Below are positions 17,512-23,148 of a stretch of 64,000 nt of DNA, piece after piece. The position numbers and the translations under genes were made by a program. The stretch comes from a virus (Duplodnaviria > Heunggongvirae > Uroviricota > Caudoviricetes), in IMG/VR virus record IMGVR_UViG_2724679538_000004, positions 1-64,000 of that record. One strand, 5' to 3'. The stretch's first letter is position 1. The number at the start of each line of letters is the position of its first letter. The notes beneath the pieces were generated by a model. It searched no databases and had not been told where the DNA came from. It saw nothing but the letters and a program-made list of their open reading frames with translations.

Positions 17512-17707
17512 ACGGGAGAAGGAAACGCTTCATGAAATCAGTAAGTGGCCGGAGTTCCCTGAATTCTGGAAACCTAAAACACGAGCCAGATTAGAGCGGT
17601 TGGGATTGGTTGCAAACGTGTCTGAAACATGTTGTTCAGCCAACTACCAGTTAACCCACAAAGGGAGAGGATTGCTACAGCAGCTGATAGAAACAGGAGC
17701 GTTATAA
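17495..17707 (+). CDS. hypothetical small protein
   Basis: 70 aa, overlaps neighbours at both ends (coupled). Confidence 0.4.
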   Translation: MIVLSKREKETLHEISKWPEFPEFWKPKTRARLERLGLVANVSETCCSANYQLTHKGRGLLQQLIETGAL

Positions 17708-17859
17708 TGATTCCATACATCTCATTAGCTTTTATGGCTGGATTCCTCATCGGCTTCGGCATCTGTCGTGATTTGATTAAGCAGGAGCTTAAAACCAAAA
17801 CACTATGCATCGGTAAGCGTGTGTATCGAGTTGTTCATGAAACAAAGGTGAGAAAATGA
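17707..17859 (+). CDS. small membrane protein (50 aa)
   Basis: TAATG overlap with upstream ORF; hydrophobic MIPYISLAFMAGFLIGFGI. Confidence 0.4.
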   Translation: MIPYISLAFMAGFLIGFGICRDLIKQELKTKTLCIGKRVYRVVHETKVRK

Positions 17860-18161
17860 GCAATCTAACTTCTTGGGAATGGTGGCTGGTAAGCTATTTT
17901 GTGGCTGCCGGAGTCGGATTTGCCTTTTACGTAGGTCTGTTAGTCGTAAAACTACTACTGATTAGATTTGCTAGTCATAAACGTATTGACGATGGTCTGT
18001 GGCGTCTGGGGTCTCTTGTTGAGATTCACTACGGCCAACTTAAGGAGAACGAAACTATCACTATACAAGCGAAACGATTTACCGCCACAATCACGAGGAC
18101 TCCTGATCAGAAAGGCGCTTTGATCAAAAAAGTTGCAACTAAAACTCTTGCTGAAAAATAA
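17856..18161 (+). CDS. membrane protein
   Basis: 101 aa, ATGA overlap; TM segment WWLVSYFVAAGVGFAFYVGLLVV. Confidence 0.5.
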   Translation: MSNLTSWEWWLVSYFVAAGVGFAFYVGLLVVKLLLIRFASHKRIDDGLWRLGSLVEIHYGQLKENETITIQAKRFTATITRTPDQKGALIKKVATKTLAEK

Positions 18162-18178
18162 GTATTTACTTACTTATT
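18157..18178. repeat. motif A copy
   Basis: AATAAGTATTTACTTACTTATT overlapping stop codon. Confidence 0.6.
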
Positions 18179-18922
18179 TTTTATGTATAAGATTTCTTTG
18201 TTTTCGTTGAAGTGCGACTTTTTGAACTTAAATACAAGTGCAAACGAAGAAGTCTATCTGGCAGTAGCTTAAGAGGCCAAACACCAGCGAGGTCAGTTTC
18301 CAGCCTCGTTACCAAAATGGGACACACTGAGCGAGTGTGATTGCAGAACGCAGGAGGGGCATTCATGTTCCCTCCGATGAAGTAACAGGATGGACGGTTA
18401 ATAGATTTCCACATTCACTTAACCTCCCGGACTCTTGGTTGTTGACCGTCCATCCTGTTACGTCATTTTGTTTAATTATGTCGTTTATTCTGGGTTAAAA
18501 GCGGCGACGTAGCCCGGCTGGTGTGGTTAGCCAGCGCATAACGTTGAGGTCATTGCATTTTTATCAATTCTAAGGTTCTATTCACAGAGATACCGGCGAG
18601 CGTTGATATGTAACATGTTGGGCAAACATTCAATCGGAGTAGTGGCCTCAACGTTGTGAAGACAGGATTGTTGTGTAGGTTTAACCACTGTTGCCATTGG
18701 TGCCTGTTTTCACAACAAATGATTCCATACATCACATTGTATAAATTACAAAGTAGGTGCTGTCCTCAAAAACATCATCTACTTAAAGATTTTGCCTTCT
18801 ATTGAGCGAAGTCGAAAACGTCTGGCACTAACGAAAAGTGCAAGTAGCGGTACGTTTCCTGGCAGAAACTAACACCGCCGCGATTGGCACTGTTGAGTAA
18901 TAAATACTGGCAGTGCTGAATT

Positions 18923-18997
18923 GATGGTGTAGCTCAGCGGTAGAGCAGTTGGCTGTTAACCAACTGGTCGGTGGTTCGAATCCACCCACCATCGCCA
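18923..18997 (+). tRNA. tRNA-Asn (anticodon GTT)
   Basis: Hand-folded cloverleaf: acceptor GATGGTG/CACCATC, D-stem GCTC/GAGC, anticodon loop CTGTTAA, T-arm GGTGG-TTCGAAT-CCACC, encoded CCA. Confidence 0.85.
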
Positions 18998-19002
18998 ATT
19001 TA

Positions 19003-19089
19003 GGGGAGTTAGTCCGTAGAGGTAGCGGTGTAGACTGTAAATCTACTGTCATTGCGACTCGGGTGGTTCGACTCCATCACTCCCCACCA
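19003..19089 (+). tRNA. tRNA-Tyr (anticodon GTA), long variable arm
   Basis: Acceptor GGGGAGT/ACTCCCC, anticodon arm GTAGA-CTGTAAA-TCTAC, T-loop GGTTCGACTCC, encoded CCA. Confidence 0.75.
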
Positions 19090-19093
19090 AATT

Positions 19094-19169
19094 GCCGGTT
19101 TAGCTCAGTTGGTAGAGCAGTCGCTTTGTAAGCGAATGGCCAGCGGTTCAAGTCCGTTAACCGGCACCA
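19094..19169 (+). tRNA. tRNA-Thr (anticodon TGT)
   Basis: Acceptor GCCGGTT/AACCGGC, D-arm TAGCTCAGTTGGTAGAGC, anticodon loop TTTGTAA, T-loop TTCAAGT, encoded CCA. Confidence 0.75.
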
Positions 19170-19815
19170 ACATAATATTGAGAACATTGGCGTAACGGGT
19201 TCATATCCCAATTTATGAATAAATGTTGCGTTGCCGCGTGACAACCAGTGTTCTCAACATTGTGATGAATGCACAGGCTGATGTGCCGTAACTACAGTAG
19301 TGCGCGCTTTGCGTGGCTTGCTACAACCCTGTGTCGGAGTTCAGCACCGACCATCACAATTTGGCTCTCTTGCAACAGCATAACGCTGAAATATGTCCAA
19401 CCTGGTGCGGCCTGTTCACCCGCCGTTAGCTCCACGAAACGGAGCGCACAACAGATAAGAGAACTTCCCATATGGGGCTTGGCTTAAATGCATCGAGTTC
19501 TCTTATCGCTGTGTCACAGACAAATTTCCGACAGCCCTGTTTATCATCGGACGCAACCTAAAAGGTCGAGGCAAAGCCAGGTAATAGCGGAGGGAGTGAC
19601 ACAGCACACAACAGGTAAGAGCATTTTCATAGTTCGACTCTCTGAGTTGCTATTCGTGGCGGCACTCGAGATGTGAATGCTCTTTCCGTTGTGGTGAATG
19701 CGGCTAAGCGCACGCGGGGAAATGGTTATATTGATCATCTTATGACATCTGTGGCCCCGTTCACGGTGGATAACCAGCCAAAGGACACCGGGAGGCACCC
19801 GGCACCACAACAATT

Positions 19816-19902
19816 GGAGAGTAGGGAGCATGGTGCTCAAGCGGTCTTGAAATCCGTCCCATTGTGCAAACGATGATGGTTCGATTCCATTACTCTCCGC
19901 CA
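19816..19902 (+). tRNA. putative tRNA-Ser (anticodon TGA) or tRNA-like pseudogene
   Basis: Acceptor GGAGAGT/ACTCTCC, anticodon loop CTTGAAA, T-arm GATGG-TTCGATT-CCATT, CCA end; D-arm and variable arm fold poorly by hand. Confidence 0.4.
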
Positions 19903-21504: not shown

Positions 21505-21525
21505 AATAGGTATGTACTTATCTAT
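21505..21525. repeat. motif A copy
   Basis: AATAGGTATGTACTTATCTAT. Confidence 0.7.
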
Positions 21526-21581
21526 CATTTATTATAAAATATATTCATAAGTAATGTGTACACCAGTAATATGAGGTAATC

Positions 21582-21827
21582 ATGACTATCGTTATCTACG
21601 GAAGAGATAACTGCTCATACTGCAAACGTGCGGTCGAGTTGGCGAAGCAACTAAAGGGACATGGCTACGGTGATTATGAGTACATCGACATCACCGCTGC
21701 CGGTATCGACAAGGAAAAACTTACCGAAATTGTTGGTAAACCGGTAGAGACTATCCCACAGGTACTGATCGATGGCAAACCGATTGGCGGATACACAGAG
21801 CTGGCCGCATATGTCAGCACACTTTGA
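21582..21827 (+). CDS. glutaredoxin-like protein (NrdH/Grx family)
   Basis: 81 aa with CSYC redox motif near N-terminus (IVIYGRDNCSYCKRA); GAGGT RBS. Confidence 0.75.
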   Translation: MTIVIYGRDNCSYCKRAVELAKQLKGHGYGDYEYIDITAAGIDKEKLTEIVGKPVETIPQVLIDGKPIGGYTELAAYVSTL

Positions 21828-21835
21828 CTTTAAAT

Positions 21836-21866
21836 GGCCGTGAAAGCGGCCTTTAATTTTTCATTT
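21836..21866 (+). terminator. rho-independent terminator
   Basis: GGCCG-tgaaa-GCGGCC followed by TTTAATTTTTCATTT. Confidence 0.6.
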
Positions 21867-21954
21867 CGTGTTTTGCAGTCTAAGTCGCATATGCAATCAA
21901 GTTTTTTTAGCTTATAGTTAGATTCAGTAGTAAAATGCTACGCCTCGTCGAGAG

Positions 21955-22503
21955 ATGACGACAATGGAGTCTATCGTGAAATTTAAAATCCAGCATTTAC
22001 AGGCAGCAGTGGCACTGGTTCTTGCCAGTATCCAGCCGCAACCAAAAGCGGTTGCGTGTCAGCCTACTATTGTAGAGCGGGTTTATGAGATGGGCGCTAG
22101 AGTCAACAAAACCGACATCAGTGAGCTTACAGCAGCCCTTAATGAGCTAGCGACAGAACTTCGCGCAAGCCGCGCTGAACTTGCTCGTTATGCTGACACT
22201 GACTTCTTTGCTGCTATCAATGTAGCGGAAGAAATTAAGAATCAAACTATTCATGTAGCCGGTATCGCAGAATCTTTCGTTTTGATGTTACCTGAAAAAG
22301 ACGTCATTTTGTCTTACGACAAAAACGCTGTAGAGTTTGCCTTCTTTAAAGCTATTAAAATGGTCAGTATTGCCGCCAAAAATTATCTAAATCTGATTGA
22401 TCAGATTACTCGCACCTCTGGTGTGCGTGAGTCTGGCGTGAACCTTTCTGCCATGAACCATCTATTGATGACTGGCAACAAGGCTGCGGCTAAATGGCAT
22501 TGA
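21955..22503 (+). CDS. hypothetical protein
   Basis: 182-aa ORF; 3' end overlaps next ORF. Confidence 0.45.
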   Translation: MTTMESIVKFKIQHLQAAVALVLASIQPQPKAVACQPTIVERVYEMGARVNKTDISELTAALNELATELRASRAELARYADTDFFAAINVAEEIKNQTIHVAGIAESFVLMLPEKDVILSYDKNAVEFAFFKAIKMVSIAAKNYLNLIDQITRTSGVRESGVNLSAMNHLLMTGNKAAAKWH

Positions 22504-22919
22504 CGGCTGAATACAGTCAAGATACGTGGGTTGATTTTTTTCAACCCACGTTTGTCGTTTATCCTGATCTGGAAAGTCAGCTCAAAACTGAGTTCATTAC
22601 CTACAAATCCACGGGTAAGCCGTCCAACCTTCTCGGTAGAGATGCGCCATTCGACTTTCCTCCGTTTGCCGTTGACGCTAACGTCCAACATATTCATGTA
22701 AATTTGCATTACCAGTTAACTTGGACTGCAAGGCAAGAAAACTACAATCGAACCTCAGATCACTATCTCATCTATACCGAGCATATGTGGGAGAGCGGCC
22801 GTTATTTGCTGATGGGTTTAGTCACTCCAGCTCACGATCGCATGTCTGCTAGAGATACTAGGTTGCTAAAGTTTTTTTCAGACGTTGCAGAAAACTTCCA
22901 CGCCTCCTTCCAAAAGTAA
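22494..22919 (+). CDS. hypothetical protein
   Basis: 141-aa ORF translationally coupled to upstream ORF. Confidence 0.45.
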   Translation: MALTAEYSQDTWVDFFQPTFVVYPDLESQLKTEFITYKSTGKPSNLLGRDAPFDFPPFAVDANVQHIHVNLHYQLTWTARQENYNRTSDHYLIYTEHMWESGRYLLMGLVTPAHDRMSARDTRLLKFFSDVAENFHASFQK

Positions 22920-22952
22920 TAGCTTCAGTGCCACACAGGGCCAACGCTCTGA

Positions 22953-22984
22953 TCAAAATCTCAAAATCTCAAAATCTCAAAATC
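22953..22984. repeat. tandem repeat (TCAAAATC)x4
   Basis: Four perfect head-to-tail 8-bp units. Confidence 0.9.
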
Positions 22985-23115
22985 GAACTTGATAATCCCG
23001 GCGTAACAACGACGCCACAACAAAAATAAACCAATAATCCTCGCTATAAAGGGTTATCGGTTTTCGTGCAATTCCCTCTCCTATAGATATTACAGAATTT
23101 AAATTCTAGACCTAA

Positions 23116-23148
23116 AATGATTCCATACCTACTATGTATGGAATCATT
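23116..23148. other. lox-like candidate recombination site: 13-bp inverted repeats around a 7-bp spacer
   Basis: AATGATTCCATAC-ctactat-GTATGGAATCATT, perfect arms, about 100 bp upstream of tyrosine recombinase gene. Confidence 0.6.

Follow-up and report, generated by a model that had tools for sequence, protein, structure and literature searches.

When one arm of a palindromic recombinase site is found again as isolated copies around the complete site, the question arises whether these copies are partners or remnants of recombination or whether they serve a purpose of their own. Here this question is addressed for a tyrosine recombinase gene and its presumed target in a stretch of viral DNA of 64,000 nucleotides (IMG/VR record IMGVR_UViG_2724679538_000004, positions 1 to 64,000; the whole stretch is called the window). 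BLAST searches against phage and plasmid collections assign positions 17000-25000 to an SSU5/pHCM2-type phage-plasmid, with Escherichia plasmids and phage Cyrano as closest relatives (~85% identity, patchy coverage). Phage-plasmids of the SSU5/pHCM2/pMT1 type are common in Escherichia, Klebsiella, Salmonella and Yersinia. The initial annotation had noted two isolated copies of the arm, taken as half-sites or pseudo-sites which hint that the DNA between 18718 and 23148 was acquired or can be rearranged by site-specific recombination. We examined 96 related loci, of which 95 carry the palindrome, and found the isolated copies to be fixed backbone features maintained by selection at the DNA level. 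In the explanation that we prefer, the palindrome would be a Cre/lox-like resolution site and the half-sites would be selected single-monomer sites for the same LexA-controlled recombinase; we give this combined reading about an even chance of being correct.

Single-arm copies of the recombinase site

The gene order, as read from annotated relatives, is ligase, three small open reading frames (ORFs), ORF-free DNA, transfer RNA (tRNA) genes, variable genes, grxA, integrase (int), a convergent helix-turn-helix (HTH) regulator, cobT, cobS and dnaE. The 13-mer AATGATTCCATAC occurs here in five exact copies, whereas 0.00 copies are expected in dinucleotide-preserving shuffles, so the recurrence is indeed beyond chance. 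Two of the copies form the arms of the full site, called C; the other three (A, B and D) stand alone, and a further single copy (E) is decayed. D and E had not been listed in the initial annotation. The sites and the genes that contain or adjoin them are:

17706-17721, plus strand: half-site A, AATGATTCCATAC+ATC, with the exact 13-mer at 17706-17718
18718-18733, plus strand: half-site B, AATGATTCCATAC+ATC, with the exact 13-mer at 18718-18730
23116-23148: full site C, AATGATTCCATAC-CTACTAT-GTATGGAATCATT, a perfect 13-7-13 palindrome and presumed core recombination site, with exact AATGATTCCATAC arms at 23116-23128 (plus) and 23136-23148 (minus)
23246-24349, plus strand: int, tyrosine recombinase of 367 aa (Pfam Phage_integrase, PF00589, and Phage_int_M)
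23852-23864, minus strand: decayed half-site E, CTTGATTCCATAT, inside int at the codons for GIWNQ
28868-32386: dnaE, an ORF of 1172 aa
29118-29133, minus strand: half-site D, AATGATTCCATAC+ATC, with the exact 13-mer at 29121-29133, inside dnaE

A and B lie exactly where they had been placed, the one at the start of a small ORF and the other in ORF-free DNA upstream of the tRNA genes. Two ORFs meet at A, which overlaps the upstream one's stop codon and the ATG of the following one, a conserved ORF of 50 aa (TAATG stop/start overlap) whose product starts with MIPYIS and whose homologue is annotated as CYRAN_38. B is situated in conserved non-coding DNA, 205 nt upstream of tRNA-Asn. The 7-mers that follow the half-sites end in CAT (ATCTCAT at A, ATCACAT at B and ATCCCAT at D), as had been described for the first two. 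The unit common to A, B and D is the 16-mer AATGATTCCATACATC; they share the longer unit AATGATTCCATACATCnCAT, and the half-site consensus reads A-TGATTCCATAC-ATC. The partial similarity to the right arm that had been reported downstream of both copies was not recovered. Compared in register with GTATGGAATCATT, A matches at 0 of 13 positions and B at 4 of 13, and the best offset gives 5-6 of 13 for A and B, where the background mode is 3 of 13. Judged by their sequence, A and B are true single-arm sites.

In the whole 108-kb genome of Cyrano, searched with at most one mismatch, the motif is present only at these sites, within 9.2 kb around int, and no further copies were found within the cargo. 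A scan of IMG/VR with a 14-mer gave mostly chance matches among the matches listed.

Order and orientation of the sites, A(+), B(+), C, E(-), D(-), recur in 95 of the 96 loci, namely in those with the palindrome, with spacings of ~1 kb between A and B, ~734 bp between C and E and ~6.0-6.3 kb between C and D. Conservation was computed over 33-38 unique sequences per site. For the core TGATTCCATAC and the ATC it amounts to 0.99 and 0.96 at A (n=38; flanks ~0.75), to 1.00 and 0.99 at B (n=36; flanks 0.57-0.65) and to 1.00 and 0.98 at D (n=33), the flanks of the three sites together ranging from 0.57 to 0.83. E is weaker, with 0.96 for the core and 0.73 for the ATC; it is perfect (TGATTCCATACATC) in pMT1, pHCM2, Klebsiella and locus L249.

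D corresponds to dnaE codons 84-89 (G-C-M-E-S-L) in a hypervariable loop of DnaE (29105-29140, codons ~80-91). The codons TGT ATG GAA TCA are invariant and the neighbouring codons change non-synonymously; the peptide CMES is found only where the DNA motif is present, and lineages free of the motif have unrelated peptides at this position. It appears that at D the DNA motif dictates the peptide of DnaE. At A, the identity is not forced by the protein, because a distant Klebsiella lineage writes MIPY with other codons (TTG ATC CCA TAT). B is shared by distant phage-plasmids of Klebsiella, Serratia and Nissabacter.

Every phage-plasmid lineage with TGATTCCATAC arms retains at least B plus E or D, always with the ATC, and the TGATTCCATAC half-sites are present even where Int is 55-60% identical (Klebsiella, Nissabacter, Serratia and L249). 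B agrees with C in its two outermost bases in one Klebsiella lineage (TG). Two phage-plasmid lineages with arms of a different type, TGACTCCAGAC, have no half-site copy of either type. A matching position inside int in three Rahnella loci was rejected as a half-site, as it is due to codon usage and is not conserved.

The one locus without C is that of SSU5, which also has no int and no HTH gene. It keeps A and D, and B with one core change, the only core mutation seen (an anecdotal case). In SSU5 (L006 9597-9762) the whole block of cargo, int and HTH gene is gone, so that tRNA-Asn is directly followed by cobT; the loss of the putative repressor fits the description of this phage as virulent. 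The deletion is unique among the phage and plasmid records searched, and it is recent, because relatives of 99.4% identity keep the module. Therefore, SSU5 as a control without int says little either way.

The full site, its recombinase and the border of the cargo slot

C lies 98 bp upstream of int and has the features of a tyrosine-recombinase core site, that is inverted 13-bp arms, a 7-bp spacer, an adjacent recombinase gene and co-variation of arms and recombinase. The 11-bp core of both arms is invariant in the 95 loci. The spacer exists in at least 10 variants, including CTACTAT, CTATTAA, TTGGTAG and TTGTAAG, and it is found in both orientations, one lineage having TTAATAG versus CTATTAA. 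In a recombinase clade of ~47% identity, which comprises Rahnella, Ewingella and Hafnia and also Xenorhabdus and Providencia phage-plasmids, both arms are changed symmetrically to TGACTCCAGAC at the same place. The following features surround C and int:

~19000-23115: variable cargo slot with tRNA-Tyr/Thr/Ser, an AT-rich gene of 450 aa (minus strand), grxA and a YafO-family toxin module
23173-23219, plus strand: candidate int promoter TTGATC-17-TAATAT, downstream of C
23203-23218: canonical LexA (SOS) box CTGT-N8-ACAG, overlapping the candidate int promoter
24344-24736, minus strand: HTH regulator (XRE-type), convergent with int

Int has the conserved catalytic set R185, K211, R284, H307 and Y316, and its AlphaFold model (predicted local distance difference test score 86) consists of an all-helical N-terminal half and a catalytic domain. 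The nearest solved structures found with Foldseek are lambda Int, Tn1549 Int and XerH/XerA; Cre is far weaker (E ~0.03-0.09). A sequence search of the PDB with Int gave no match, and sequence models put it near the P4-type integrases. Membership of the Cre family was therefore rejected, as there is no PDB sequence match and Cre ranks far below lambda Int structurally.

The LexA box is located 54-56 nt from C in 90 of the 95 loci and is absent in the Rahnella-type, Xenorhabdus, Providencia and Nissabacter elements. Since the promoter and the LexA box lie between C and int, C would not be part of the int messenger RNA (mRNA). In Cyrano, the homologue of the HTH regulator carries the annotation of a putative repressor. 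Its gene always adjoins int in the phage-plasmids and is absent next to int in Rahnella-type loci, on whose replicons int and the palindrome stand alone as a pair. In Rahnella, Ewingella and Hafnia (L016-L036) the palindrome TGACTCCAGAC-TTAATAG-GTCTGGAGTCA is found ~130 bp upstream of int, and the recombinase is encoded on large replicons amid ordinary metabolic and chemotaxis genes, without an HTH neighbour and without half-sites.

A role of C as attP for chromosomal integration was rejected. Complete genomes of 5426 E. coli strains were searched, 249 of which carry this recombinase, and 0 of the 251 int copies are chromosomal, all being on plasmids. That the element is never chromosomal in E. 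coli fits with multimer resolution. Together, C and Int have what looks like the anatomy of a Cre/lox-like resolution system, the activity of which we infer.

Breakpoints of homology were searched by pairwise BLAST and in a 62-sequence alignment with segment-wise identities. In every comparison, the homology of the relatives resumes at 23114-23117, which is the outer edge of the left arm of C. The edge is sharp although the int region is only 70-75% identical, and the site itself is 100% identical. It is the only recurrent breakpoint among the motif sites. To its left, homology is patchy within the slot, GC content drops to 0.34-0.40 and the distance from B to C varies from 1192 to 5724 bp among the loci; 23 sequence clusters flank C on the left versus 9 on the right. 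The left border of the slot is not at B, as the DNA between B and tRNA-Asn belongs to the conserved backbone; the variable region begins only past the tRNA genes, ~280 bp right of B. Thus, of the suggestion that the segment from 18718 to 23148 was acquired, the variable cargo left of C held up, but not a boundary at 18718 or 17706.

If two elements with identical arms crossed over in the spacer of C, the result would be a breakpoint of just this kind. The breaks at the arm edge and the two spacer orientations are indirect evidence for recombination at C. In SSU5/pHCM2/pMT1-type phage-plasmids, the accessory genes occupy a single slot bordered on the right by this recombinase site, and a Cre/lox-like, SOS-controlled site would explain where the cargo accumulates.

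Explanations for the single-arm copies

According to the initial annotation the half-sites are pseudo-sites or scars, and the segment from 18718 (or 17706) to 23148 was inserted and is excisable or invertible via C. The arm of the half-sites is in fact identical to that of C, the DNA from the tRNA genes to C is variable with its right border exactly at the left arm of C, and the reversed spacer in one lineage indicates that the site has been turned over. Some tyrosine recombinases do recombine single-arm sites, e.g., Rci at sfx. However, no homology breakpoint was found at A, B or D in any comparison, and variable DNA starts only after tRNA-Asn. The nearest breakpoints are ~220 and ~45 nt left of A and, in pMT1, 58 nt left of B. 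The related genomes have the same gene order without breakpoints at A or B, the very outcome that the initial annotation had named as speaking against its own proposal. Neither a deletion product of B x C or A x B nor an inverted arrangement is present in the 95 palindrome-bearing loci; where only one plus-strand copy is present, the contig is truncated or the locus is that of pMT1. The 7 bp that follow a half-site are never identical to the C spacer of the same genome (best 5/7, usually 2-3/7), so an overlap equal to that of C never occurs. A and D are in frame within conserved genes, and recombination between a plus and a minus copy would break dnaE or int. The sites are under purifying selection and are not decaying. 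What stands is the relation of the copies to the recombinase site; as relics, pseudo-sites or partners for excision or inversion they are contradicted by purifying selection, by the missing breakpoints and by the missing second arm. Excision or inversion through the half-sites appears largely unsupported, and we regard this explanation as very unlikely. Repeated half-sites do not by themselves mark the ends of a mobile segment.

In the explanation that we prefer, C would be the core target of the adjacent LexA-controlled tyrosine recombinase, and the pair of int and C would keep the ~110-kb plasmid prophage monomeric in a Cre/lox-like manner. Exchange between the C sites of co-resident elements would fix the right border of the accessory-gene slot. 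Each half-site would bind one recombinase monomer; strand exchange could not be completed for want of a second arm and of a spacer identical to that of C. The recombinase is proposed as the binder because the half-sites equal the arms of C, cluster near int and co-occur with the matching arm type. The half-sites flank C like a mirror image within ~6 kb on each side, A and B being directed to the right, E and D to the left; cobT carries a copy with one mismatch, which makes the mirror count 2+3 instead of 2+2. This orientation toward C is suggestive and statistically weak. Possible roles would be local capture of Int, control of synapsis, or a regulatory or roadblock effect exerted at the small ORF, at the tRNA/cargo leader, in int itself or in dnaE. 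Binding of Int at the half-sites is thus predicted from sequence comparison, and its physiological role would be accessory or regulatory.

Several observations weigh against this explanation. The ATC extension is absent from the arms of C, so that the half-sites may be read differently or by something else, and at 0.7-6 kb they lie much farther out than in the accessory-site architectures known so far. E is dispensable: its sequence has decayed in the window as well as in Nissabacter and the Escherichia clade. Compensatory co-variation was not found: the Rahnella-type, Xenorhabdus and Providencia elements have changed arms and no matching half-sites. In another Klebsiella lineage than the one mentioned above, the outer two bases of B do not track C. 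SSU5 lacks int and still has A and D, although the deletion there is unique and of recent date. In addition, a literature search gave no paper that names the motif or characterises the site of this recombinase.

A broader form of the preferred explanation is a recombinase with a dual function, which would resolve multimers at C after release of LexA and would also occupy the single-arm sites in its own gene, in the DnaE loop, at the start of the small membrane-protein ORF and in the tRNA/cargo leader. By this it would couple SOS induction to the control of replication and cargo, or build a polar, mirror-symmetric architecture around C and the slot. We consider this possible but doubtful. If true, it would be a long-range network of half-sites for a catalytically active tyrosine recombinase.

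Three other explanations were weighed. The 15-mer could be recognised as an operator by a DNA-binding protein other than Int, namely the convergent HTH regulator or a factor of the host, with the palindrome serving as a double operator instead of, or in addition to, a recombination site. An XRE-type putative repressor always lies beside int in the phage-plasmids, the ATC extension hints at a recognition unlike that at C, and the C1 repressor of P1 has asymmetric operators scattered over the genome. However, the region upstream of the HTH gene (24737-25250) has no copy with up to 3 mismatches, int and palindrome persist without the HTH gene in the Rahnella-type loci, and the arms change with the recombinase. 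Furthermore, the copies are confined to 9-12 kb around int instead of occurring genome-wide at lytic promoters, and half-site centres 20 bp apart fit tyrosine recombinases and not small HTH dimers. We find an operator of this kind unlikely. The motif could also act as RNA, whereby transcripts of A and B (5'-AAUGAUUCCAUACAUC-3') would pair with the mRNA of dnaE, and in some lineages of int, in a duplex of 14-16 bp and regulate replication genes, the partner of the dnaE mRNA being, for example, a leader or small RNA from the region of B. All genes here are transcribed rightward, and between the plus and minus copies complementarity is perfect and extends to the ATC/GAT which the arms of C lack; within a conserved non-coding region beside tRNA genes, B is the block with the highest conservation, and D is kept at synonymous positions of an mRNA. 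But this gives no reason why the motif should equal the recombinase arms, which co-vary with the recombinase, nor does it account for the Rahnella-type palindrome, which has no other copy, or for the position of C upstream of the int promoter. Around B there is neither a promoter nor a conserved structure (consensus fold -7.6 kcal/mol with B unpaired and almost no covariation), and no Rfam family matches. An RNA element is in our view quite improbable.

Finally, the extra copies could be functionless and reflect only a coincidence of coding constraint or shared ancestry, for A, D and E are in coding DNA and MIPY and VWNQ are partly conserved peptides. Against this, 0.00 copies are expected, the non-coding B has the highest conservation of all the copies, A and D show no variation at synonymous positions, MIPY is written with other codons in distant lineages, and D lies in a protein loop that is otherwise free to vary. 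Coincidence is extremely improbable.

Among the closest known systems, C itself resembles Cre/loxP of P1. There, too, a plasmid prophage carries one site with two 13-bp inverted arms and a short asymmetric spacer directly upstream of a tyrosine recombinase gene, and the present element is never chromosomal in E. coli. In contrast to loxP, the spacer has 7 bp and not 8, Int is not a homologue of Cre, and the promoter has a LexA box. To our knowledge, loxP has no conserved single-arm copies kilobases away.

For the half-sites a close parallel is TnpI with the IRS of Tn4430 and Tn5401, whose motif is found in inverted core repeats and in extra single copies at which no crossover takes place (PMC7157771). 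In Tn5401 one extra TnpI motif lies near each end, kilobases from the core and in mirror orientation, and binding of TnpI also regulates expression (PMC7157771). The locus studied here has likewise extra single copies of the core-arm motif which apparently are not crossover points, and a YafO module takes the place of the toxin-antitoxin pairs that are found directly upstream of the resolvase site in the TnpI elements. However, a transposase and terminal inverted repeats are missing here, and the extra copies are located within dnaE and int, at the start of an ORF and in a leader of tRNA genes. Copies of the DR1/DR2 type are absent within 100 bp of C, the nearest copy being 0.7 kb and the others 4.4-6 kb away, and the proteins are unrelated beyond the shared superfamily.

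Other systems resemble the locus in single aspects. In the R64 shufflon, the sfx sites recognised by Rci consist of a conserved arm and a 7-bp spacer beside an arm that is not conserved; they share the spacer and invert at high frequency. The half-sites described here share only ATC, their spacers differ from C and from each other, and no inverted arrangement is seen in the 95 loci with palindrome, where minority variants within a culture are not visible in assemblies. The E. coli dif site is flanked by oppositely oriented polar sites (Ter/Tus and KOPS/FtsK). The likeness, a resolution site between two groups of asymmetric sites that point toward it, is one of geometry only and is a lead rather than a test; here each side has only 2-3 sites, no partner of the Tus or FtsK type was identified, the plasmid replication gene is ~20 kb away, and with regard to replication polarity there is no switch of GC skew at C. 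YopR of SPbeta and SroF of phi3T have the tyrosine-recombinase fold and are sequence-specific binders at several prophage sites. They are among the structural matches of the Int model, weakly and at ranks 34-36 (E ~7e-3), but in Int the catalytic Arg/Lys/Arg/His/Tyr residues are preserved, and a bona fide palindromic core site accompanies it. The likeness to integrons is limited to a LexA-controlled recombinase beside a cargo array: IntI ranks below lambda Int in the fold search, and no attC-like folded sites were noted, though they were not searched for specifically.

In this context, the full site C is a new example of a familiar type of site, and the conserved, oriented, long-range single-arm copies, one of which appears to dictate a DnaE peptide, are a new take on the theme of accessory sites. 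C and Int would provide a new 13-7-13 pair of target and recombinase with natural spacer variants, which could be used for genetic engineering. The conserved copies suggest that the amino-acid sequence encoded by an essential replication gene can be imposed by a DNA motif within it, and they point to a possible second activity of the recombinase.

Contents of the cargo slot

The two ORFs between grxA and C, which had been listed as unknown, are a toxin-antitoxin-like pair (21955-22919), the 141-aa product matching YafO_toxin with E = 4.6e-21. Elements of Klebsiella (L009, L010) and Serratia (L250) likewise have a YafO module directly next to the palindrome. In the window, about four tandem repeats of the 8-mer CTCAAAAT lie in the interval from the YafO gene to the palindrome (~22952-22985).

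The content of the slot differs among the relatives. In Klebsiella it comprises type I restriction systems and toxin-antitoxin modules. In pMT1/pFra of Y. pestis (L007 3113-8241) it holds the F1-capsule operon caf1R-caf1M-caf1A-caf1, the right end of which abuts the palindrome; in pMT1 half-site B is replaced, with the junction 58 nt from B. The slot of Cyrano holds a minus-strand gene, which is highly expressed (PMC9928086). In the window, the AT-rich gene of 450 aa (20084-21436, minus strand, GC ~0.34) gave a weak match to putAbiC, a putative abortive-infection family, that is below the cutoff (E = 0.0026), and homologues of variable length occur in that same position among relatives.

The left part of the slot contains DNA (19154-19811) that is ~89% identical to the upl-plp/tRNA region of phage P1. 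Adjoining tRNA-Ser, a match to an STnc100-like small RNA was found just under the threshold (19666-19838; 43.8 versus 47 bits). Outside the slot, in the ORF-free region between the small ORFs and the tRNA genes, there is a long near-perfect hairpin (18373-18470). The equivalent region in Klebsiella (L163 27571-27721) has a sub-threshold match to the Rfam permuted transfer-messenger RNA (35.4 bits, gathering score 47), which suggests that the hairpin region is an unannotated structured RNA.

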